Below are positions 1 to 9,710 of a DNA stretch of 9,710 nucleotides, piece by piece. Under the pieces are notes generated by a model that was given only the letters and a program-made list of their open reading frames with translations, searched no databases and was not told the origin of the DNA. The stretch comes from a virus. Taxonomy: Duplodnaviria > Heunggongvirae > Uroviricota > Caudoviricetes. Every line of letters starts with the position of its first letter. Position 1 is the first letter of the stretch. The DNA lies in the IMG/VR virus record IMGVR_UViG_2531839663_000002; one strand, written 5' to 3'. Both the position numbers and the translations under genes were made by a program.

Positions 1-156
1 TTGCATCAAGAACAGCAGTGTCAGCCCTAGGCTCTCGGACTTTGTACCGCTTATCTTGTCTTCAAAAATCAGCTCGCCTCCTGCACAGTTCAACGCATTA
101 CGTTGTAGATCGATTTTCTGGTCATTTGTTGATACGAAAACATAGCCAATAAGCAT
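1..156 (-). CDS. Serine DNA invertase (Pin/Gin/Hin family), 5' portion only; gene runs off the left window edge; carries the same Arg-to-Phe change as the right copy
   Basis: Minus strand of 1..156 is identical to 2203..2358, so it encodes MLIGYVFVSTNDQKIDLQRNALNCAGGELIFEDKISGTKSE...; start codon at 156..154 preceded by a GAGGGAG Shine-Dalgarno. Not in the ORF track because it is open at the edge. Confidence 0.7.
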   Translation of the reverse strand, partial: MLIGYVFVSTNDQKIDLQRNALNCAGGELIFEDKISGTKSESLGLTLLFLMQ

Positions 157-182
157 GGTAGCTCCCTCTGACAAAAGCAGGA

Positions 183-725
183 ATGATGCCATTTTCTCGT
201 TATTTCTGCATTTTCATAAACGTTGGTTTGGGAGAAGGCTCTGCATTACCGGTTGGGGTGCCTGTTCCGTGGCCTTCAGCCACTCCGCCAACAGGCTGGC
301 TGAAATGCAACGGTGCCGCTTTTTCTGCTGAAGAATACCCGGAACTGGCAAAGGCTTATCCGACAAATAAATTGCCTGATTTACGTGGTGAGTTTATTCG
401 TGGCTGGGATGACGGGCGTGGTATTGATGCTGTACGTGCCTTGCTAAGTCTTCAGAATGGAGGAGTGGAATCACACACCCACCAAGGGCAGCTCTTCAGA
501 GTTAGTGATTATCGTACAAAAGAAATACCAGCATCAGAAGTTATGGGAAGAGGATATATTGCAAGCCTGACGCCGGGTGCTGATAGCCCACTTGATTTTG
601 ATGATTATTCTGTATCTTCTAATCCAAATGGATATTTTGTCGGGAATCAGAGAACAACAGCATATGGGATAAATGAAACCCGTCCACGGAATATTGCATT
701 TAACTATATCGTGAGGGCTGCCTGA
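183..725 (+). CDS. Phage tail-fibre C-terminal (variable, receptor-binding) module; orphan segment with no constant N-terminal part upstream
   Basis: 180-aa ORF with tail-collar-like PVPWPSATPPTGWLKCNGAAFSAEEYPELAKAYP...DLRGEFIRGWDDGRG and terminal NIAFNYIVRAA typical of tail-fibre C-termini. First 18 codons lie in the repeat; in-frame stop at 159..161, so no upstream fusion is possible. Stop overlaps next start (TGATG at 723..727). Confidence 0.7.
   Translation: MMPFSRYFCIFINVGLGEGSALPVGVPVPWPSATPPTGWLKCNGAAFSAEEYPELAKAYPTNKLPDLRGEFIRGWDDGRGIDAVRALLSLQNGGVESHTHQGQLFRVSDYRTKEIPASEVMGRGYIASLTPGADSPLDFDDYSVSSNPNGYFVGNQRTTAYGINETRPRNIAFNYIVRAA
211..236. other. Putative invertase crossover site (hix/gix/pix-like), left copy
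   Basis: Reverse complement reads TTCTCCCAAACCAACGTTTATGAAAA, resembling remembered 26-bp sites hixL TTCTTGAAAACCAAGGTTTTTGATAA and gix TTCCTGTAAACCGAGGTTTTGGATAA (shared TTC..AAACC.A.GTTT..GA.AA). Sits at the inner end of the long repeat. Confidence 0.6.
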
Positions 726-1327
726 TGAATAAAGCCGTATTAAATAACGAACTCATTGCCATAAAAGCGGGAGACATTACCATTTATAATTATGATGGTG
801 AAACGCGGGAATATATTTCCACATCAACTGAATATCTTGCGGTTGGCGTCGGTATCCCGGCATGTTCTTGTTTAGATGCACCAGTTACACATAAAGCTGG
901 TTATGCAATCTGCCGTTCTGCAGATTTTAACTCATGGGAATATGTGCCAGACCATCGCGGTGAAATCATCTATAGCACCGAAACAGGAGAATCGAAAGAA
1001 ATCACAGCTCCGGGTGATTACCCTGAAAATACAACCACTATCGCCCCGTTAACGCCATATGATAAATGGGATGGTGAGAAATGGGTGACGGATACTGAGG
1101 CACAGCATAGTGCCGCAGTAGACGCGGCAGAAGCACAGCGCCAGTCACTGATTGATGCAGCAATGGCTTCCATTAGTCTGATTCAGCTGAAATTACAGGC
1201 CGGACGGAAGTTGACGCAGGCAGAAACAACCCGACTTAACGCCGTGCTGGATTACATTGACGCGGTGGCGGCAACAGATACCAGCACCGCGCCGGATGTC
1301 ATCTGGCCTGAACTGCCGGAGGCGTAG
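725..1327 (+). CDS. Tail fibre assembly protein (Tfa/U-like chaperone)
   Basis: 200-aa ORF translationally coupled to the upstream fibre module; C-terminal LDYIDAVAATDTSTAPDVIWPELP matches the conserved Tfa C-terminal motif and is shared with the convergent paralog. Confidence 0.8.
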   Translation: MNKAVLNNELIAIKAGDITIYNYDGETREYISTSTEYLAVGVGIPACSCLDAPVTHKAGYAICRSADFNSWEYVPDHRGEIIYSTETGESKEITAPGDYPENTTTIAPLTPYDKWDGEKWVTDTEAQHSAAVDAAEAQRQSLIDAAMASISLIQLKLQAGRKLTQAETTRLNAVLDYIDAVAATDTSTAPDVIWPELPEA

Positions 1328-1742
1328 GCCATTCAATATCTGGCGCACTGGAGGAATCAACCAGTTCCAGTGCGTCCAGATAATCCAGCCACAAATTATA
1401 TTGCGCCAGTTCATCATCTTTCAGACGACCAATAGCGGCTTTACCGGGCCATTGCTTACTGTTCATGTATTCGTTGGCCTGGTTAATTAGTAGCTGTCTT
1501 TCTGATTCAGTAATTTCAATAAGTTCTTCATGCGTGGGTGGAGGAATATCTGCCCACGCAGGCAGCCCATCATCTCCGGCAATACGGATTTTTCCTTGTG
1601 GCGGTTCAGCCATAAACTCACTGATAATATTTTGATTTACTTCCTTAGCGTCTGATAAATCCCATCCCTCTGATTTATATTTATCAATCATATCCACAGG
1701 GAAAAAAGCATTATGCCTTGCGCTATAAACATATTCGTTCAT
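1299..1742 (-). CDS. Tail fibre assembly protein (Tfa'/U'-like), second allele
   Basis: Minus-strand ORF; probable start is ATG at 1742..1740 (MNEYVYSARH...) with a GGGTGA Shine-Dalgarno about 7 nt upstream (the ORF track begins at an upstream GTG, 1751). C-terminus LWLDYLDALELVDSSSAPDIEWPTPP parallels the other Tfa. 3' ends overlap the + strand tfa by 29 nt. Confidence 0.8.
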   Translation of the reverse strand: MNEYVYSARHNAFFPVDMIDKYKSEGWDLSDAKEVNQNIISEFMAEPPQGKIRIAGDDGLPAWADIPPPTHEELIEITESERQLLINQANEYMNSKQWPGKAAIGRLKDDELAQYNLWLDYLDALELVDSSSAPDIEWPTPPAVQAR

Positions 1743-1762
1743 ATAAATCACCCTGAATAAAA

Positions 1763-2176
1763 TTACTCACCAACAGCCCACCAACTGTAATTCATCGATA
1801 CCGTGTCGCTGGTTGATGACGTCCTGTAAGCAGAATTAAAGCCGGTTAACGTTGGGCCTTCTGCAGTCATCACGAACCCTCGCCCAGCGCCTAAAGGCGC
1901 ACCGCCATCACCAGAATGAGTAAGCATGGCGCAGTCCGCTTTTTTGGGGAAAGGGATGCTGAATGTAATTCTCATTGTTTGCGTCGATAATGTCGGCGTA
2001 ACCGCACCACTACCATATTGCAGGATTTTCCCGTTGGGTAATTTCATCCATCCATCACCACTGGCAAAAGAGGCCATGTCCGGTATCTGATTTTCCCCTG
2101 TCCCTACATCCCGTTTTGCCGCTTCTCCCAAACCAACGTTTATGAAAATGCAGAAATAACGAGAAAATGGCATCAT
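1763..2176 (-). CDS. Phage tail-fibre C-terminal (variable) module, alternative allele
   Basis: 137-aa ORF starting with the same 18 residues (MMPFSRYFCIFINVGLGE) as 183..725 because both begin in the repeat, then diverging; followed 20 nt downstream by its own tfa gene. Confidence 0.7.
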   Translation of the reverse strand: MMPFSRYFCIFINVGLGEAAKRDVGTGENQIPDMASFASGDGWMKLPNGKILQYGSGAVTPTLSTQTMRITFSIPFPKKADCAMLTHSGDGGAPLGAGRGFVMTAEGPTLTGFNSAYRTSSTSDTVSMNYSWWAVGE

Positions 2177-2358
2177 TCCTGCTTTTGTCAGAGGGAGCTA
2201 CCATGCTTATTGGCTATGTTTTCGTATCAACAAATGACCAGAAAATCGATCTACAACGTAATGCGTTGAACTGTGCAGGAGGCGAGCTGATTTTTGAAGA
2301 CAAGATAAGCGGTACAAAGTCCGAGAGCCTAGGGCTGACACTGCTGTTCTTGATGCAA
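2122..2358. repeat. Right copy of the inverted repeat (IR-R)
   Basis: Exact reverse complement of 1..237. Confidence 0.9.
2123..2148. other. Putative invertase crossover site (hix/gix/pix-like), right copy
   Basis: TTCTCCCAAACCAACGTTTATGAAAA on the + strand; exact inverted partner of 211..236. Confidence 0.6.
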
Positions 2359-2394
2359 ATTAAAGGATTTAATAGTGAGTTGTGGCCTTACTAA
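2203..2394 (+). pseudogene. Serine DNA invertase (Pin/Gin/Hin family) remnant: N-terminal ~40 codons recognisable, then divergent and terminated
   Basis: MLIGYVFVSTNDQKIDLQRNALNCAGGELIFEDKISGTKSE closely matches remembered Gin/Pin N-termini (MLIGYVRVSTNDQ..DLQRNAL..IFEDK.SG). The conserved Arg before the catalytic Ser is Phe (TTC). Frame stops at 2392..2394 after about 64 codons, against roughly 190 aa for an intact invertase. GAGGGAG Shine-Dalgarno precedes ATG 2203. Confidence 0.8.
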
Positions 2395-2403
2395 TGTAAG
2401 GCC
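2384..2403. terminator. Hairpin between the convergent invertase remnant and the GmrSD-like gene; possible terminator
   Basis: 8-bp stem GGCCTTAC / GTAAGGCC with 4-nt loop TAAT, then a moderately T-rich stretch on the + strand (gctataatcattttatt). Lies between the stop at 2392..2394 and the minus-strand stop at 2428..2430. Confidence 0.35.
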
Positions 2404-2427
2404 GCTATAATCATTTTATTAATTGCA

Positions 2428-4317
2428 TTAATCGTGTTTTGGCCATACTTTCAATGCAATTTCCCCCAACTTTTTACCCCGCTCCAGGATTTCACCCTCA
2501 TCCCATTTATCCTTAAGTATAAGTGGTATGTTCAGTCGTAGATTGGTGTGGACGATGAGAGCATCACGTTTTTTCAGAAATACAGCATTCTGAACAGAAC
2601 GGTTTACGCTAAGGTTAAGCAAAGTTAGATTTCCCAACGTAGCTATCGCTTGTTGCCGTTTCCTTACCAGTAGCTGCTCAGGGGTAAGATCTGTTCCAGA
2701 CAGAACAATTTGGTTCAATACCGTTGCATCTGAATTTGTCACCATATGACCATTTTCGAGAGGCCAACAGGAATACCAACTTTGAGGCATAAGATGATCG
2801 ATATCGAGATTGGAAAGATTTGGAACATCAGGCTTCTCTGTCTTCACTTGGCGACAAAGTTCTCTTTCAAGTTCCGTTAACATTGAGCGCATTTTCGGTG
2901 CGTCGAGCCTGCCAGGATAAAGTGGAGCATTGATGCAAGCATTGAGAAATTCTGAGTCACCAGGCCAACGTGAGGCTTCGCCATTTAAGCTATTGAGGAT
3001 ATTACGTAACTCAACACTGGAAATTTCCGTTTTAGACAAGTGCCGCAATACATTCATAAATACATTGTTGTAATTCTTTGGCGTCAGGCCACATACGGCT
3101 CTTCGTACTACGTAGGAGACAAGATCATTATACATGGCTGCTTTCTCATCATCGGCGATATTAGCTATCGAAATGAACAAAGCAAGCGGATAAAGTGTCG
3201 TCACATCATAGGCTGCGATGCGATGTCCAAAGTGTGAGATGGGGGTTGTGCCAAAACCACCAACTAATTCTTTATATTGTGATGCATATTGTTTGAGGCG
3301 CTTTACTTGCAGATCAGCTCGTTGTGAAGGCAAGTCCTTACTTACATAATCACGATACTCATTGTAAAGACGAGACAGATCAATTTCACGTTGCCTTTCT
3401 GATTGCAATGTCGCATGCACTAGCCACTCCATGCGTGGTTTATTAATACGTCCACGGCGTTGCCTTTCCGACCAGTATGTATCTTCAAAGCTCTTCCACT
3501 CATTTTCATATAATTCAATAGCATTAATATTTTCATGCTCAGCGCACATAAAGATGTAGTTGCGAATAAGATCCGTGGCATGAAGTTCCGCCCCTCGGCC
3601 ATTTAATGTTTCAAAAATTATTTGGGCATCATCTTCAGCTTCGAGAAATATGCTTACCAGTTTCAGATCCGTCAAGACAGCCTCAATTAGTGCTACAGCA
3701 TTTTCATGTGGTGAGTACTGTTCTATTTTAATCCATTTTATAAAGGCTTCAGTAAAAAACCATAATGCCTCTAGTGACGGCGGGTGGTTGAAATGTTTAC
3801 GTAACGTACCATGTTGCGTGAAGCTATCAGAAAATACATCACGGAGATCGTCAATGTTTTCAACATTAAAACTTTGAATAAAATGAGTTTGGTCTCGAAA
3901 AGTTGGCCACAGTTTGAAGCATTCTACCTTTTTATTTCGCATAGTTGCTTCGTTTGTATTTTTCAAGCAAGTCAATACTAACCCTTCCAAATCAGAAAGG
4001 CCTGTAGCACGCAATGATAATCGAATGGATGCCAGAATATATTGAAGAGTGGTTAAACGTTGCTGGCCGTCAATAATATGTATGGTATCTACACCTAACA
4101 AGCTGTTTTTGAGTTGAGGTTCCAGCACCACCGCGCCAAGGAAATGGGGAGTTGGTTTTGTTCCCAAAAGTCGGCTATGTGCTTTTTCGAAGATATCCTC
4201 CAGCAAAGCTGACCATTGGTTTTGTTGCGTCCATACGTAGGCACGTTGATAGAATGGAACACGATATTGTCGTTGATTTTGGAAAAGTTGCTGGATGGTT
4301 AGCGTTTCGGATTTCAT
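2428..4317 (-). CDS. GmrSD-family type IV (modification-dependent) restriction endonuclease, DUF262 + DUF1524 architecture
   Basis: 629-aa ORF. N-terminal region has the DUF262 hallmark DGQQR (aa 83-87, ...IHIIDGQQRLTTL) with upstream YRVPFYQRAYVW; C-terminal region has an HNH/His-Me-like DIDHLMPQSW ... NLTLLNLSVNRSVQN pattern typical of DUF1524. Confidence 0.8.
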   Translation of the reverse strand: MKSETLTIQQLFQNQRQYRVPFYQRAYVWTQQNQWSALLEDIFEKAHSRLLGTKPTPHFLGAVVLEPQLKNSLLGVDTIHIIDGQQRLTTLQYILASIRLSLRATGLSDLEGLVLTCLKNTNEATMRNKKVECFKLWPTFRDQTHFIQSFNVENIDDLRDVFSDSFTQHGTLRKHFNHPPSLEALWFFTEAFIKWIKIEQYSPHENAVALIEAVLTDLKLVSIFLEAEDDAQIIFETLNGRGAELHATDLIRNYIFMCAEHENINAIELYENEWKSFEDTYWSERQRRGRINKPRMEWLVHATLQSERQREIDLSRLYNEYRDYVSKDLPSQRADLQVKRLKQYASQYKELVGGFGTTPISHFGHRIAAYDVTTLYPLALFISIANIADDEKAAMYNDLVSYVVRRAVCGLTPKNYNNVFMNVLRHLSKTEISSVELRNILNSLNGEASRWPGDSEFLNACINAPLYPGRLDAPKMRSMLTELERELCRQVKTEKPDVPNLSNLDIDHLMPQSWYSCWPLENGHMVTNSDATVLNQIVLSGTDLTPEQLLVRKRQQAIATLGNLTLLNLSVNRSVQNAVFLKKRDALIVHTNLRLNIPLILKDKWDEGEILERGKKLGEIALKVWPKHD

Positions 4318-4874
4318 TGTTTACCTATAAGTGACATTCCACAAGAGTAAGAAATTCATCTGAGTCAGAATAATCATTTTTATGTAGTCATGATACAGTG
4401 TATTTGTTGCTGGTGAAGTAAAAACGAGAAATCCCGCTTTTGAATGCTGACGTGCTACGGTTTCATTGGATATTCTCTTTTGTCTGTTCTCCATTGCGTC
4501 GGTGTTTTTTCGAGATTGTTAGCACATTGTTGCTGCTGTTTTTTTATCCAAGCGCTGCTAAATCATTGTAGATGGCACTATCGGGTATTGAAGCTGCAGA
4601 CATGTCGTATACAATAGTCAGCTGCGACTGGCTGGTGAACTTCCGATAGTGCGAGTATTGAATGATTTCCAACTGTTATCGATTTTGCGTATTTTTTGCA
4701 TGAGAGGATTTTTACCTCCTCCCACCGATCCTCCATGGCTTTACGCCAGTGTCTCTGGTCTGCTATGTACCAGAAGCGGAAGTTGTGTCTGTTAGTATGA
4801 TATTATAATTACACTCGCTTATAATAAGCCCACAATACAGATATAAAAATATCTCAACGCTTGGGAGTTAACAA

Positions 4875-5336
4875 ATGATTAACTTTACTGAAATTGATAG
4901 TGACGGTGAAGCCTGGGAGTCATTTGCCCGTGATTTTCTTGAAGAACTTGGCTTTTATATTGAATCCGCGCCAGATAGAGGTGCAGATGGAGGTAAAGAT
5001 CTTTTAATCACAGAGCAATTGCAAGGTCAGTTAAATAAATATAAATTTCGTTGGCTTGTTAGCTGTAAACATTATGCAACAAGTAAAAAATCAGTTTCAG
5101 AAAAGGATGAGATTAATATACAAGAACGTATTGATGGATTCAATGCCGACGGATTTATTGGATTTTACTCAACACTGCCAAGTAGTGGTTTAAATTCAAG
5201 AATGACGCAATTAAAAGAGAATGGAAAAATAAAGGACTTTCGATTCTTTGATGGTAAATTAATTGAAAATCACTTAGTCAGAATTGGTTACTCAAAACTA
5301 CTCCTTAGATACTTTCCTGAGAGCTATAAAAAATAA
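4875..5336 (+). CDS. Small stand-alone Mrr-cat-like (PD-(D/E)xK fold) restriction-endonuclease domain protein
   Basis: 153-aa ORF with GGGAG Shine-Dalgarno about 8 nt before the ATG. Motifs GADGGKDLL (4980..5006) and FRWLVSCKHY resemble the Mrr catalytic core (GDGGIDL ... QCKRY). No N-terminal DNA-binding domain. Confidence 0.65.
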   Translation: MINFTEIDSDGEAWESFARDFLEELGFYIESAPDRGADGGKDLLITEQLQGQLNKYKFRWLVSCKHYATSKKSVSEKDEINIQERIDGFNADGFIGFYSTLPSSGLNSRMTQLKENGKIKDFRFFDGKLIENHLVRIGYSKLLLRYFPESYKK

Positions 5337-5347
5337 AACCCAAGCAT

Positions 5348-5785
5348 TTGATTTTTGATAAGTACTTACCTATAAAATGTGATCGTTGTGGAAAGGACTT
5401 AATAGAAAACCATCATGAAGAAAATTATGATGGCATTGTGTGCAATGCAGAGATCATACACGATGACAAACCAAATGAGGTGATAGCGGTTTATTATGCG
5501 TGTAAAGGTGATTGTGATAAGCATTTTGAGGATTATTTTTGGAATGAATATAAAGCGATTACGAGATGGCAGGATATAAGTGATCTAGCCATCCCATTAT
5601 TCTATCTCAAATGGATTATGGGGACATTTAATGAACTTGAGTATGGAAGGAAAACATATACCAAAGAAGCCTTCAATAAAACAAAGGAGATAACATTAGC
5701 GCTATCTCAAATTGTTATGAGAGAAATGACAGAAAAAGAAAGAGAAAGAGTGATGGCTTTGAATTCACTACCTGATTACATATAA
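5348..5785 (+). CDS. Cys-rich hypothetical protein (possible C4 zinc ribbon), likely co-transcribed with the upstream Mrr-cat gene
   Basis: 145-aa ORF starting 12 nt after the upstream stop, same strand. Only a TTG start is in frame and no clear Shine-Dalgarno is seen. CxxC (CDRC) plus CxxxC (CKGDC) could form a zinc ribbon; no recognisable family. Confidence 0.5.
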   Translation: MIFDKYLPIKCDRCGKDLIENHHEENYDGIVCNAEIIHDDKPNEVIAVYYACKGDCDKHFEDYFWNEYKAITRWQDISDLAIPLFYLKWIMGTFNELEYGRKTYTKEAFNKTKEITLALSQIVMREMTEKERERVMALNSLPDYI

Positions 5786-5958
5786 ATTATATTTACTAAC
5801 ATTTGAACTAGCGCATCTTTGGTGCAGAGACACCACCATCTTGGGGACACTGTGAGGCCACTGGCTTCCCAACTTATCGTTATACAGGATAATAAGGTGC
5901 TCCAGGGTAGCTATGAACTTGATGTTACGTCTGCGATTTGCTCATAAGGGACAACCAT

Positions 5959-5991
5959 ACTCAAATCTCCCACATTGCAGGAGATTTGAGT
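5959..5991 (+). promoter_or_regulatory. Hairpin sequestering the Shine-Dalgarno of the tyrosine recombinase gene
   Basis: Perfect 12-bp inverted repeat ACTCAAATCTCC (5959..5970) / GGAGATTTGAGT (5980..5991) with 9-nt loop; the right arm contains GGAG and ends one base before ATG 5992. Confidence 0.5.
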
Positions 5992-6594
5992 ATGAACACG
6001 TCACCGTGGAACAAAGACCGTATCATCGGCCAAAAAAGACCACTTCAGATATCTCATATCTGGGGGATCCGAATCCGGCTTGAACTGGAAGGTAAAACGC
6101 GCGATTTAGCTCAGTTCGATATGGCCCTGGACAGTAAGCTACGAGGCTGTGATCTGGTCAAACTCAAAGTATCTGATGTTGCATATGGTAGCTCTGCTTC
6201 AAGCAGAGCTACGGTGCTGCAACAGAAAACCGGTAGCCCTGTGCAGTTTGAGATAACCAAAGGGACAAGAGAAGCTGTTGCTGCATTGATAATGCTTGGC
6301 AATTTGCATAGTAAAGACTTCTTGTTTCGGTTTCTGGTCGGAACTAATTAGCTCATATCTACCCGGCAATACAACCGAATTTTTCATGGGTGGGTAGAAA
6401 AGCTTGGTCTCGAAGATTCGCTTTACAGCACTCATTCCATGAGAAGAACAAAACCTTACCTGATCTACAAGAAAACCAAGAATCTTCGGGTGATCCAACT
6501 TCTGTTGGGCCATAAGAAACTGGAAAGCACAGTCCGTTATCTGGGTATTGAAGTAGATGATGTGTTAGAGATCTCTGAATCGATTGAAGTCTAA
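5992..6594 (+). pseudogene. Compact (~200 aa) tyrosine recombinase/integrase (catalytic domain only) interrupted by an in-frame TAG at 6349..6351
   Basis: One frame runs 5992..6594 with a single TAG at 6349..6351. Before it: LRGCDLVKLKVSDV...QQKTGSPVQFEITKGTREAV (box I Arg). After it: HSMRRTKPYLIYKKTKNLRVIQLLLGHKKLESTVRYLGIEVDD (H-x-x-R, His, RY Tyr). The downstream part is missing from the ORF track only for lack of a start codon. Confidence 0.8.
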
Positions 6595-6600
6595 GGTTGT

Positions 6601-6622
6601 CAGGGCTGCAACAACAGCCCTG
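6601..6622 (+). other. GC-rich stem-loop just after the recombinase stop codon
   Basis: CAGGGCTG (6601..6608), loop CAACAA, CAGCCCTG (6615..6622); no following T-tract, so not a canonical intrinsic terminator. A TTGACA hexamer follows at 6633..6638. Confidence 0.35.
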
Positions 6623-6717
6623 TGCCAGGAGTTGACACTGTTAGCATCGCGCTATGTTAATTTATGTTGAGCAGTTAAAAATGATAATGTAGTTTATATG
6701 GATAATCAGTTTATAGA

Positions 6718-7599
6718 GTGGGTGAGATGGAACTAGATGAAACACTTGAAGTTATCAAAAATAATTTTAGTAATAATCAGAAGAAACTATTTAAAAGGAT
6801 TGAGCCAGCCACTAACCGTCAAGTAGCTATCGGTCTTATTAGTTTACAAGGAGTGGAAAAAACATCTCAGGCTGAGATAGAGGTAATTGCCGGCCTCATA
6901 TCTCAGTTTAGTCCATTGGAAATCGATAGTTTTCAAAATTCACCACGACGAATAACTCTGAAAGGTCAATTCCCAAACGGACATATTGTTTATATCGAGC
7001 CTCAGTATAAGGTTGGCAATATAAACCCAAAAGCCCAGCCTTGGGCAATAGACCTTGTCCTTAGACTAAATAGATGGATTGGTCAAGATTTGGTTGAGAT
7101 TGCTGCTATTGGCATCGAGTATGATGGCCACATAGCTCATTATGTGGAAAGTAAAATTAAGTCTACTTACAAGCGTGATGCAGTAATAACTAGTAACGAA
7201 GGATTTCAATCGATTAGGATCTCACCAGAACAATGGAAATCGTCTAAAGAGGATCTTAAGAAGGCAATTAAAAAGTATTTTGAACATCACATAAAAAAAA
7301 TTGAAAAAGTTCAACTAAGCACAATAAACGCCCAAAATTTCAACAATTTTATTTATGAAAATGAAAATGAAGTGATATCCACTGTAACTTGCCCTTTATG
7401 TAATGGAAAAGGCAGTTTAGCGGGAGAAGATTGTCCGATCTGTAATGGAATGGGATCCGTAAAAAGATATATTGCTGCAAAGGTGAATCTTTCTAATTAT
7501 GAAAAATTCACTTGTCCTGACTGCAGGAATATAAAATTAGATTGCAGAACCTGCAATGGTGAAGGATCAATTAGCAGAGAAAAAGCATTAGAAATGTAA
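6718..7599 (+). CDS. Fusion protein: DUF559/Vsr-like PD-(D/E)xK nuclease domain plus C-terminal DnaJ-type CxxCxGxG zinc finger
   Basis: 293-aa ORF (GTG 6718 or ATG 6727 start, ambiguous). Central AIDLVL...AIGIEYDGHIAHY...KRDAVITSNEGFQSIRIS matches the DUF559 pattern (IExDGxxH ... RDxx ... GxxxxR). C-terminus has CPLCNGKG, CPICNGMG, CPDCRN, CRTCNGEG (about 7390..7566), as in the DnaJ cysteine-rich domain. Confidence 0.7.
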   Translation: MGEMELDETLEVIKNNFSNNQKKLFKRIEPATNRQVAIGLISLQGVEKTSQAEIEVIAGLISQFSPLEIDSFQNSPRRITLKGQFPNGHIVYIEPQYKVGNINPKAQPWAIDLVLRLNRWIGQDLVEIAAIGIEYDGHIAHYVESKIKSTYKRDAVITSNEGFQSIRISPEQWKSSKEDLKKAIKKYFEHHIKKIEKVQLSTINAQNFNNFIYENENEVISTVTCPLCNGKGSLAGEDCPICNGMGSVKRYIAAKVNLSNYEKFTCPDCRNIKLDCRTCNGEGSISREKALEM

Positions 7600-7904
7600 T
7601 GATAAAAGTAAACCTAAATAATTTAGTGTAATGTCTGCTTTTCGCTCATAACAGACATAAACTTCAGTTATGGCATAAAGGTATGCATGCTGGGTGGGGA
7701 AAGTATGAAGGAAAAGAAGACTGCTGCGCCGTTTGTCGTCACGTTTATCTTCATTGGCTATGTAAGTCGTAATACAAGGTGGGACAAAACTGAGACACAT
7801 AAGGCCTCGCAATGGCTTGCAAGGCTTTACATGTTTTGATGTGGTGGGACGTGTGAGCGCAGTGTTGATGGGGTAATGCTTTGAATTAGAAGCGGATTCT
7901 TATA

Positions 7905-7950
7905 ATTCGTAATGCGAAGGTCGTAGGTTCGACTCCTATTATCGGCACCA
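7905..7950 (+). other. 3' fragment (~46 nt) of tRNA-Thr(CGU), thrW-like; attachment-site remnant marking the end of an integrated element
   Basis: ATTCGTAATGCGAAGGTCGTAGGTTCGACTCCTATTATCGGCACCA matches the 3' part of E. coli thrW as remembered (anticodon-loop CGT, T-arm GGTTCGACTCC, acceptor end with CCA). Sequence upstream of 7905 does not match the tRNA 5' half, so this is not an intact gene. Confidence 0.75.
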
Positions 7951-8403
7951 TCTTTTATAATAAAATCATCAAGTTATTATTGCATTGTTTTGCTTTGTTC
8001 AACACTAATGTGCAATTCTGCGCGTTGTAGATGTGGCAAAATTGTGGCAAGTACAGTGAGATTGTTTGTGGCTCAATGCAAGGGTATGCTAACGGCACGT
8101 GTTACCTTGTAGCTCCCGTCGATCTTGTCTTTTGAGCAATATTACTACTTTGATGGTTTCTGGTTACGGATGTTGTCAGTCCAGTTCGCAGCCAGCACGG
8201 TTTGACCTAAAGGATGTTATTACAATAACCTACGCAGGCATTCAAACACGTTTAGTCTGCCATTTAGGTTATTGCATTCACTTGACGACCCATTTGCATT
8301 TCACTTAGTCATATCTAACAAAAAAATGCATCCGATACCCTACTATTGACAGGCAGCTTTGAGCGATCTGCTGACATTACCAGCATAGTGGCGTATTAAT
8401 CAT

Positions 8404-8637
8404 CTAGGAGCAGGTCACAATCTCAGCCATCAAGCTCTGGACTAACCCAACTGCGAAACGCTGCAGACTAACAAGACCATCTTCGTCGTCCTCGCCGTAG
8501 AAACGTGTGAAGGCAACCGATCGCACCTTCTCATAGTCTTCACCATGTTCATCGCCTCCAAAACGCTTGGCGAGCGCCGCCAGCACGTACTTCAAAGACT
8601 CTTGGTCCTCCTCTGAACGAATAGAGCTATGACTTCG
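8404..8637 (-). pseudogene. Orphan 3' gene fragment of unknown function
   Basis: Minus-strand frame open from a stop at 8638..8640 to the stop at 8404, with no ATG or Shine-Dalgarno at its 5' end (the ORF track starts at a TTG). Acidic sequence ...GGDEHGEDYEKVRSVAFTRFYGEDDEDG...; no family recognised. Could be spurious. Confidence 0.25.
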
Positions 8638-8804
8638 CTAGAGACAAAGTCGCTTACTTAGCTTCCCTGTTTCGATGTTGCAACTCACATATTTTTAACT
8701 TTCAGAATGTGTTACCCAATAGTTCGTGCTAATGCTACTATTTGTATTCAATCGGATTAATGATGTTGTTACGCGAGTCCATTGAACTAAACATAAGGGA
8801 GTAT

Positions 8805-9330
8805 ATGGGGTTAGCTGAAACATTAGTTAGTATTCCGCAGTCTGAAAGAGGCGGTGAGATTGCTCAACGTGGGTTTGACTATCAAACTTGCTGGGCTTTA
8901 TCTCAAATGCTGGAATATGAACTAGATGAAAAGAACTATGTGTTTATCTTCGAATATCATGATGATGTTCTTATTCTTGATGACGAAGTTTCTCCAACAC
9001 AACTCACATTTGCTCAAGTAAAAACAAGAGAGAAACACTGGACTGCATCCACTCTTAGTAATAGCACCAAGAAGAACCCAATATCTATCATCGGTAAGTT
9101 ATTTATTCATCAAAAGAATTTCGCCGAATATTCACCCAAGCTCCTTTTTGTTACTAATGCTTCTTTCAATCTATGTGAGGAAAACGGTGGTAAGTCTTGT
9201 TTTGGTGCAAATGAAGTCAAAGTGGAGTATCAGACGAGCTTTAAGAAAGCAATCAAAGATCAAGTAAAGCTTGATGACTCCAGTATCGATCTTTCTGTTA
9301 TGCGTTTCGTTCAATCCTCATTAAGCCTAG
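8805..9330 (+). pseudogene. PD-(D/E)xK-like nuclease-domain gene (resembles DUF4297-type domains of defence proteins), 3'-truncated by IS5
   Basis: ATG at 8805 with AAGGGA Shine-Dalgarno at 8795..8800. Motifs GFDYQTCWAL, EYHDDVLILDD and FAQVKT fit a D...(E/Q)xK core. The frame continues into the IS5 terminus from 9331; the last residues GKVRTSP are IS-encoded, so the native C-terminus is missing. Confidence 0.6.

Positions 9331-9710
<380 letters not shown>

Follow-up and report, generated by a model that had tools for sequence, protein, structure and literature searches.

Two pixR crossover sites in a viral contig probably represent one e14-type invertible P segment in two orientations

The viral DNA analysed here, a stretch of 9,710 nt from an IMG/VR Caudoviricetes record (hereafter the window), opens with two convergent pairs of fibre-tip and tail-fibre assembly (tfa) genes enclosed by an inverted repeat. 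The first-pass annotation of this DNA had placed a Hin/Gin-type 26-bp crossover site at the inner end of each repeat arm and had proposed that inversion between them would exchange the two fibre/tfa pairs. The locus raises the question of what these two sites are, whether they are partners in recombination and how the second copy, together with its flank, came to lie on the other side of the segment.

The 26-mer TTCTCCCAAACCAACGTTTATGAAAA occurs exactly twice in the window, at 211-236 on the minus strand and at 2123-2148 on the plus strand (Table 1), and the number of chance matches expected with up to three mismatches was 0.00 (200 shuffles). Both positions fit the degenerate pattern TTCNNNNAAACCNNNGTTTNNGANAA with 0 mismatches (0.01 matches expected even at two or fewer mismatches), and the annotation of Hin/Gin-type sites at these positions was borne out. 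On alignment to curated sites, the 26-mer was identical at 26/26 positions to pixR (PMC3241671 Table 3), in a table of Din-family sites that covers hix, gix, cix, mix and bix besides pix and that marks the two core residues as the breakage site. The same 26/26 identity was found with the site directly upstream of pinE in the K-12 prophage e14 (L014 4606-4631). The site has a 12 + 2 + 12 layout with inner half TTCTCCCAAACC, core AA and outer half CGTTTATGAAAA, and by direct reading 8/12 positions of the half-sites are symmetrical; the AA core and the half-sites fit the family, both in layout and in sequence. The sites compared all have this layout, and in a common register their inner halves resemble one another closely. 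In the P1 record, the crossover is annotated within the central dinucleotide of cixL and cixR. These two identities indicate a genuine and already known site of the Hin/Gin/Cin/Pin family. Judged from its sequence, the 26-mer is almost certainly pixR, which in an e14-type invertible P segment is the crossover site nearer to the invertase gene. The pixR/pixL pair and PinE of this segment in E. coli K-12 were reportedly described by Plasterk & van de Putte in 1985 (GenBank X01805).

Table 1. Positions of the crossover sites, repeat arms, invertible segment and invertase remnant in the window
Feature	Position	Strand	Remarks
Left repeat arm	1..237	-	Reverse complement of pixR, pin upstream region and first 156 nt of pin remnant (1-156)
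Second identical pixR, with the same pin-side outer flank	211..236	-	Sv segment end adjoins; flip state A
Sv, variable fibre C-terminal module, phage tail collar domain	225..725	+	PF07484, E = 6.4e-16; program ORF 183-725
Unique body of invertible P-type segment	238..2121		Two convergent fibre-tip + chaperone pairs; 100 % identical to L006
tfa, tail-fibre assembly chaperone for Sv	725..1327	+	PF02413, E = 3.1e-32
tfa', tail-fibre assembly chaperone for Sv'	1299..1751	-	PF02413, E = 7.9e-31
Sv', variable fibre C-terminal module, gp53-like C type	1763..2134	-	PF21882, E = 1.3e-12; program ORF to 2176
Right repeat arm	2122..2358	+	Runs on into remaining flank (GmrSD and beyond), as in natural loci
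pixR	2123..2148	+	Native context beside pin remnant; Sv' segment end adjoins; flip state B
Central AA, putative strand-exchange point	2135..2136	+	Mirror at 223-224 (TT on + strand)
pin', 63-aa remnant of Pin-family serine invertase gene	2203..2394	+	Partial Resolvase match
Stretch homologous to annotated Cin recombinational enhancer	2221..2292	+	Inside pin'; mirror at 67-138 (-)

The 237-nt repeat arms (1-237 and 2122-2358) are 100 % complementary. In each arm, pixR takes up all but one of the 27 inner bases, namely the innermost 26, and both copies are thus found where the annotation had put them, at the point where repeat meets unique cassette DNA. The repeat itself lies outside the crossover points and consists of flank DNA. 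Its left arm stops at base 1 of the window, which is the contig end, and the position of its outer end (2358) relative to the pin truncation is approximate, as homology to intact pin fades at ~2340-2358. The sites were also said to encode the first shared fibre residues, and this agrees with the reading frame: the inner half-site at 225-236 (GGT TTG GGA GAA) codes for G-L-G-E, the first residues common to both variable modules. Both fibre ORFs begin with MMPFSRYFCIFINV, which is a fortuitous opposite-strand translation of the pin upstream region and not fibre sequence. Neither pixL, the partner site known from e14, nor Sc, the constant part of the fibre gene, is present in the window. In this state neither fibre module has a head, and a flip between the two window copies would alter nothing expressed.

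Natural loci were obtained by look-up of the exact 180-aa ORF, which gave 10 loci from 24 contigs, including one contig of 4.7 Mb. These loci were 97.3–100 % identical to the window over the aligned stretches (at least 99.95 % in 7/10), and the pin remnant with its site was single-copy in 10/10, as was the repeat-arm DNA. The far side of the segment was reached in 8/10 loci, and in 8/8 of these it carried Sc together with Mu-type baseplate and tail genes (Gp48, baseplate J, Gp46, Gp45 and others), giving a natural layout of Sc-pixL-segment-pixR-pin'. The site that adjoins Sc, TTCTCCCAAACCAAGGTTTTCGAGAG, is made up of TTCTCCCAAACC, AA and GGTTTTCGAGAG and is identical at 26/26 positions to curated pixL (PMC3241671); it was found on the Sc side in L001, L003-L010 and e14. 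Natural relatives have this inverted pixL, with the same core, as the partner of pixR, whereas the second inverted copy in the window is another pixR. The proposed swap of fibre/tfa pairs holds for the natural locus, in which inversion would change the pair that is fused to the constant part. It fails for the two window copies as partners, both of which are pixR with an identical pin flank, in DNA from which pixL and Sc are absent.

Comparison with L006, a state-A locus of this set, located the change of partner. Window 1-2141 aligned forward to L006 9819-11959, and window 2122-9710 aligned to the reverse complement of L006 10055-2465. Positions 1-2136 are 100 % identical to L006 9819-11954, the first difference falls at 2137, directly after the central AA, and from 2137 on the outer half of pixR stands where L006 has the outer half of pixL. 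Aligned in this way over 9.7 kb, window and L006 differ only by two 1-nt homopolymer deletions. The window thus follows L006 into the segment and, from AA on, continues with the same flank in reverse complement, so that it has one junction per flip state. The left junction (pin flank-pixR-Sv) is that of state A, as in L006, and the right junction (Sv'-pixR-pin flank) is that of state B, as in SFE8. The two window copies most likely represent one site and one flank in two flip states, not a partner pair.

The fibre genes of the two orientations differ accordingly in their tips. In L006, Sc...ALENLGLGE is followed by the same gp53-like tip (Sv') in a fibre of 220 aa, and in SFE8, with the opposite orientation, the same Sc...ALENLGLGE is followed by a collar-type tip from a homologous Sv allele in a fibre of 241 aa; window 218-418 is 95 % identical to the start of this SFE8 allele. 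At the four junctions provided by L006 and SFE8, TTCTCCCAAACC with AA remains on the segment ends, Sc retains GGTTTTCGAGAG and pin retains CGTTTATGAAAA, and the partner switch between orientation states falls within the 15-16-nt core shared by pixL and pixR. This pattern is the predicted signature of exchange in the shared core around AA, and the differences between genomes of opposite orientation are exactly those expected from a crossover there. Inversion points in e14 have been reported at the same 16-bp core, CCTTCTCCCAAACCAA (PMC12529663). The comparison of orientations points to strand exchange at the central dinucleotide, in agreement with the crossover annotated in P1.

Both orientations were found among complete E. 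coli genomes with the same truncated pin-GmrSD junction, with 6 records in state B and at least 30 in state A. For the allele itself, public assemblies contained 24 contigs in state A versus 1 in state B. The exact 137-aa state-B ORF was present in only one other contig, L013, a 1,954-nt scaffold from an ENA metagenome. Exact-pattern scans for the state-B junction gave no match in species-representative genomes, none in JGI metagenomes and five in IMG/VR, all of them in relatives of 92–94 % identity. L013 (1-1954) is the segment alone, beginning 40 nt into the pixR flank and ending exactly at the central AA, which is the expected outcome of an assembly that breaks at a two-orientation fork. 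A search for both arms in one complete E. coli genome found none: the maximum coverage of window 1-2450 was 86 % (n=5,426), which indicates that no complete E. coli genome has both.

In the Hin/Gin/Cin/Pin family, an invertase dimer binds each 26-bp site, and the sites meet with a Fis-bound enhancer contained in the initial ~90 nt of the invertase gene. Each site is then cut with a 2-bp stagger at the central dinucleotide, a pair of half-sites rotates and the strands are resealed. The invertase gene beside the site in the window is present only as the 63-aa remnant pin', which covers positions 2-52 of 145 of the Resolvase profile and in which a Pfam profile search found no HTH_7 domain. Homology of pin' to PinE, Gin and Cin fades after about residue 50, Phe stands for the conserved Arg in YVRVS, and in complete genomes the gene is annotated as an incomplete recombinase pseudogene. 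An intact pin homologue is found at the same position in e14, in an O157 prophage and in L017, a related locus from IMG/VR. The presence of the remnant indicates that the locus descends from a complete system, activity of which would need an invertase in trans. The enhancer of P1 is annotated at cin nt 19-90, and the homologous stretch of pin' is identical to e14 pinE at 65/72 positions and to P1 cin at 51/72. It is enhancer-like, and its function, which is Fis-dependent in the family, is putative here.

On this basis, the locus would be an e14-like prophage remnant with Mu-type tail and baseplate genes, in which dimers of a Pin-type invertase on pixL and pixR would be joined with the Fis-bound enhancer and would cut at AA. 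A flip of the ~1.9-kb segment would fuse the other variable C-terminus, accompanied by its own chaperone, in frame (...ALENL-GLGE...) to Sc. As the resident pin is a 63-aa stub, any flipping in this lineage would have to be driven in trans by the invertase of another prophage. Inversion of the e14 P segment at one and the same 16-bp core is carried out by each of PinQ, PinR and PinE, which are invertases of different prophages (PMC12529663), and both e14 orientations coexist in clonal K-12 cultures (PMC4272514). The occurrence of both orientations with the same truncated pin-GmrSD junction would fit flipping by an outside invertase after the truncation, and there are hints that such activity in trans is current. 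The truncated pin-GmrSD module lies beside different tail modules in different strains, and part of the orientation diversity could therefore stem from prophage recombination and not from flipping after the truncation.

Taken as a whole, it is quite probable that the site is the pixR of an e14-type P segment seen in two flip states, that the repeat is a product of draft assembly and that the segment is flipped in trans. For the repeat by itself, an origin in the assembly appears likely: pixL and Sc are missing and the window combines two junctions of one locus, which argues that the 237-nt repeat would be a draft-assembly product of DNA holding both orientations, its left arm cut by the contig end. 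A left arm at base 1, a right end 380 nt inside an IS5 element and two homopolymer deletions suggest a draft contig bounded by repeats. Since the shared core is only 15-16 nt long, the assembler needed reads for each junction, and by our reasoning both junction types were in the sample.

Several points weigh against an assembly origin. By our own reasoning, a k-mer assembly of a simple mixture of orientations would usually be expected to stop at the forks or to settle on a single orientation, not to place the pin flank at both ends of the segment. The exact allele is also rarely found with a state-B junction in public data. An assembler that breaks at forks should stop at the site, as it does in L013, and the assembly origin is therefore less certain than the identity of the site. 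The window ends 237 nt past the last segment-specific base on the left and ~238-240 nt past a 1-nt deletion in IS5 on the right. Overhangs of such similar length would fit, if weakly, a contig with an effective word or read length near 240, as the two homopolymer deletions may be sequencing errors and weaken any deduction of word length from them.

The alternative that survives best, although we regard it as unlikely, is that the inverted repeat is real, 237 nt or longer, with the pixR-enhancer-pin' flank on both sides of the segment in the source chromosome. Snap-back replication at the 15-16-nt inverted cores might produce such a repeat, as might an invertase-mediated exchange involving two element copies. 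Each of the two sites would in that case be a true pixR, and the segment would still be flippable in trans, with no constant part to fuse to. A real duplication would account for a contig that passes unbroken through both segment ends into the pin flank and for two exact junctions, each of which required its own reads given the short shared core. It would also agree with L017, an independent IMG/VR contig that ends in a 52-nt perfect inverted copy of pixR and the region upstream of pin. However, both arms were found in no complete E. coli genome, near-identical loci show the normal order of Sc, pixL, segment, pixR and pin', and the left arm is cut by the contig end, with the arm of L017 likewise at a contig end. 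The simplest route, pixL x pixR exchange between sister chromosomes, would by our reasoning give an inverted dimer, which should be inviable. It is distinctly unlikely that the window represents an orphan fibre-cassette segment at the edge of a defence island (GmrSD, Lamassu remnant), with pixR and an enhancer-bearing pin stub on both sides and no fibre gene, that is flippable in trans.

L017 has an intact 196-aa invertase, and its inverted copies lie at 2323-2374 and 6440-6491. Between its pixR and the baseplate gene there is a third fibre-tip fragment, cut by an IS3-family element. L017 was considered as a second example of such a repeat and was found not to be decisive between artefact and real duplication; the IS3 insertion and the third cassette fragment complicate its layout.

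Very unlikely, in our view, is the alternative that the sites are relics locked by the loss of pin. On that view, mixed strains, or two copies of the prophage each fixed in a different orientation, would have supplied the two junction types, and the orientation diversity would be older than the truncation or would result from prophage recombination. The 63-aa stub is consistent with this, as are the predominance of state A in public assemblies of the allele (24 contigs versus 1) and the mosaic combination of the pin'-GmrSD module with different tail modules. Locked relics are harder to reconcile with two sites that are unmutated relative to the active e14 sites, with an enhancer-like stretch kept at 65/72 positions and with the published trans-inversion of the e14 segment by PinQ and PinR (PMC12529663). 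Moreover, the DNA that holds the state-B junction shows no substitution against state-A strains across 9.7 kb, as would be expected if the switch was very recent. A chance look-alike, or simply a part of the pin promoter, was discarded as next to impossible, its only support being the position upstream of pin', against zero matches expected by chance, 26/26 identity to a curated and experimentally defined site and a junction swap that falls exactly at the core of the 26-mer.

Read as the pixR of a P segment in two flip states, the locus shares with e14 the site itself (pixR, 26/26), the partner in natural relatives (pixL, 26/26) and the CCTTCTCCCAAACCAA core reported as the inversion point (PMC12529663). 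Gene order is also shared, from the Gp48/YmfQ baseplate gene through the constant fibre part, a site and two convergent fibre-tip and tfa pairs to the second site, pin and then a type IV restriction gene. The differences are that the resident invertase is here cut to 63 aa, that the cassette alleles are not the same (414-nt tfaP in K-12, 150-aa tfa' here), that GmrSD is found downstream where e14 has McrA and that the window has a mirror pixR side where e14 has pixL and Sc. The G segment of Mu (gix, Gin) resembles the locus in the 12 + 2 + 12 layout, in an invertase-proximal site just upstream of the invertase gene and in Sc/Sv fibre switching, but the gix core is GA, not AA, with half-sites TTCCTGTAAACC GA GGTTTTGGATAA; both 26-bp sites read identically in the Mu record.

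The C segment of P1 (cix, Cin) has the AA core, an inner half-site, TTCTCTTAAACC, that differs at 2/12 positions, a crossover annotated in the central dinucleotide and an enhancer in the first ~90 nt of the invertase gene. The annotated P1 crossovers bound the whole 4.2-kb segment, and the long inverted repeats of P1 lie inside them as part of the invertible DNA, whereas the 237-nt repeat of the window lies outside; P1 also differs in that the 3' end of cin adjoins cixL. A P1-like architecture, with the sites at the outer ends of the repeat, was rejected because the window sites are at the inner ends of the 237-nt repeat, which places the repeat outside the crossover points. The H segment of Salmonella (hix, Hin) has 26-bp sites with an AA core and the Din consensus (hixL, TTCTTGAAAACC AA GGTTTTTGATAA), but its half-sites differ and it controls a promoter, not fibre C-termini.

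The biological gain from this locus is small, as the site, its partner, the mechanism and cross-activation by other prophage invertases have all been described already; what might still be new is confined to the unlikely case of a real mirrored flank. A perfect inverted repeat at a contig end beside an invertible segment should be read as one locus in two states and not as a pair of sites or a new architecture. The occurrence of one junction per orientation in DNA that otherwise equals that of state-A strains hints that a P segment with a dead pin is still flipped in trans, in line with PinQ and PinR driving e14 inversion (PMC12529663).

The DNA to the right of the segment carries several genes related to defence. 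Directly downstream of pin', 2428-4317 (-) encodes a full-length GmrSD-type (DUF262/DUF1524) type IV modification-dependent restriction enzyme, with a PADLOC mREase_IV match over 1-629 of 629 positions. In K-12 e14, the corresponding slot after pinE holds mcrA, and the post-invertase position thus looks like one at which type IV restriction genes are exchanged. Rightward of GmrSD, the cargo is a mosaic: SFE8 departs from the window after ~4670, and retron Ec67 or IS5 is found there in other strains. A gene for a 303-aa protein with an Mrr_cat nuclease domain (4875-5786, +) is intact in L006. In the window, an A7 run has lost 1 nt (A-run 5328-5333), which leaves two ORFs, 4875-5336 and 5348-5785; either the gene is a pseudogene or the missing base is a sequencing error in the homopolymer. 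The DNA that separates the Mrr-like gene from the ORFs after it contains, at 5956-5994, a perfect inverted repeat of 15 nt around a 9-nt loop (CATACTCAAATCTCC ... GGAGATTTGAGTATG).

The product of 6718-7599 (+), 293 aa long, combines a zinc-finger region of the DnaJ type (CXXCXGXG) with a weak match to REase_MTES_1575, and it also matches the PADLOC candidate PDC-M01B at the latter's C-terminal end (E = 6e-15); it is possibly encoded by an uncharacterised defence gene of the island. Relatives diverge after ~7951 (7951-7963) into an integrase, xanthine dehydrogenase genes or, as in the window, LmuA and IS5. Of a Lamassu LmuA / Cap4-nuclease protein, 8742-9353 (+) encodes the N-terminal half, which is interrupted by an IS5 that starts at 9331 (GGAAGGTGCGAA). 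The window ends at 9710, 380 nt into this IS5, which has a 1-nt deletion at 9471 relative to L006.
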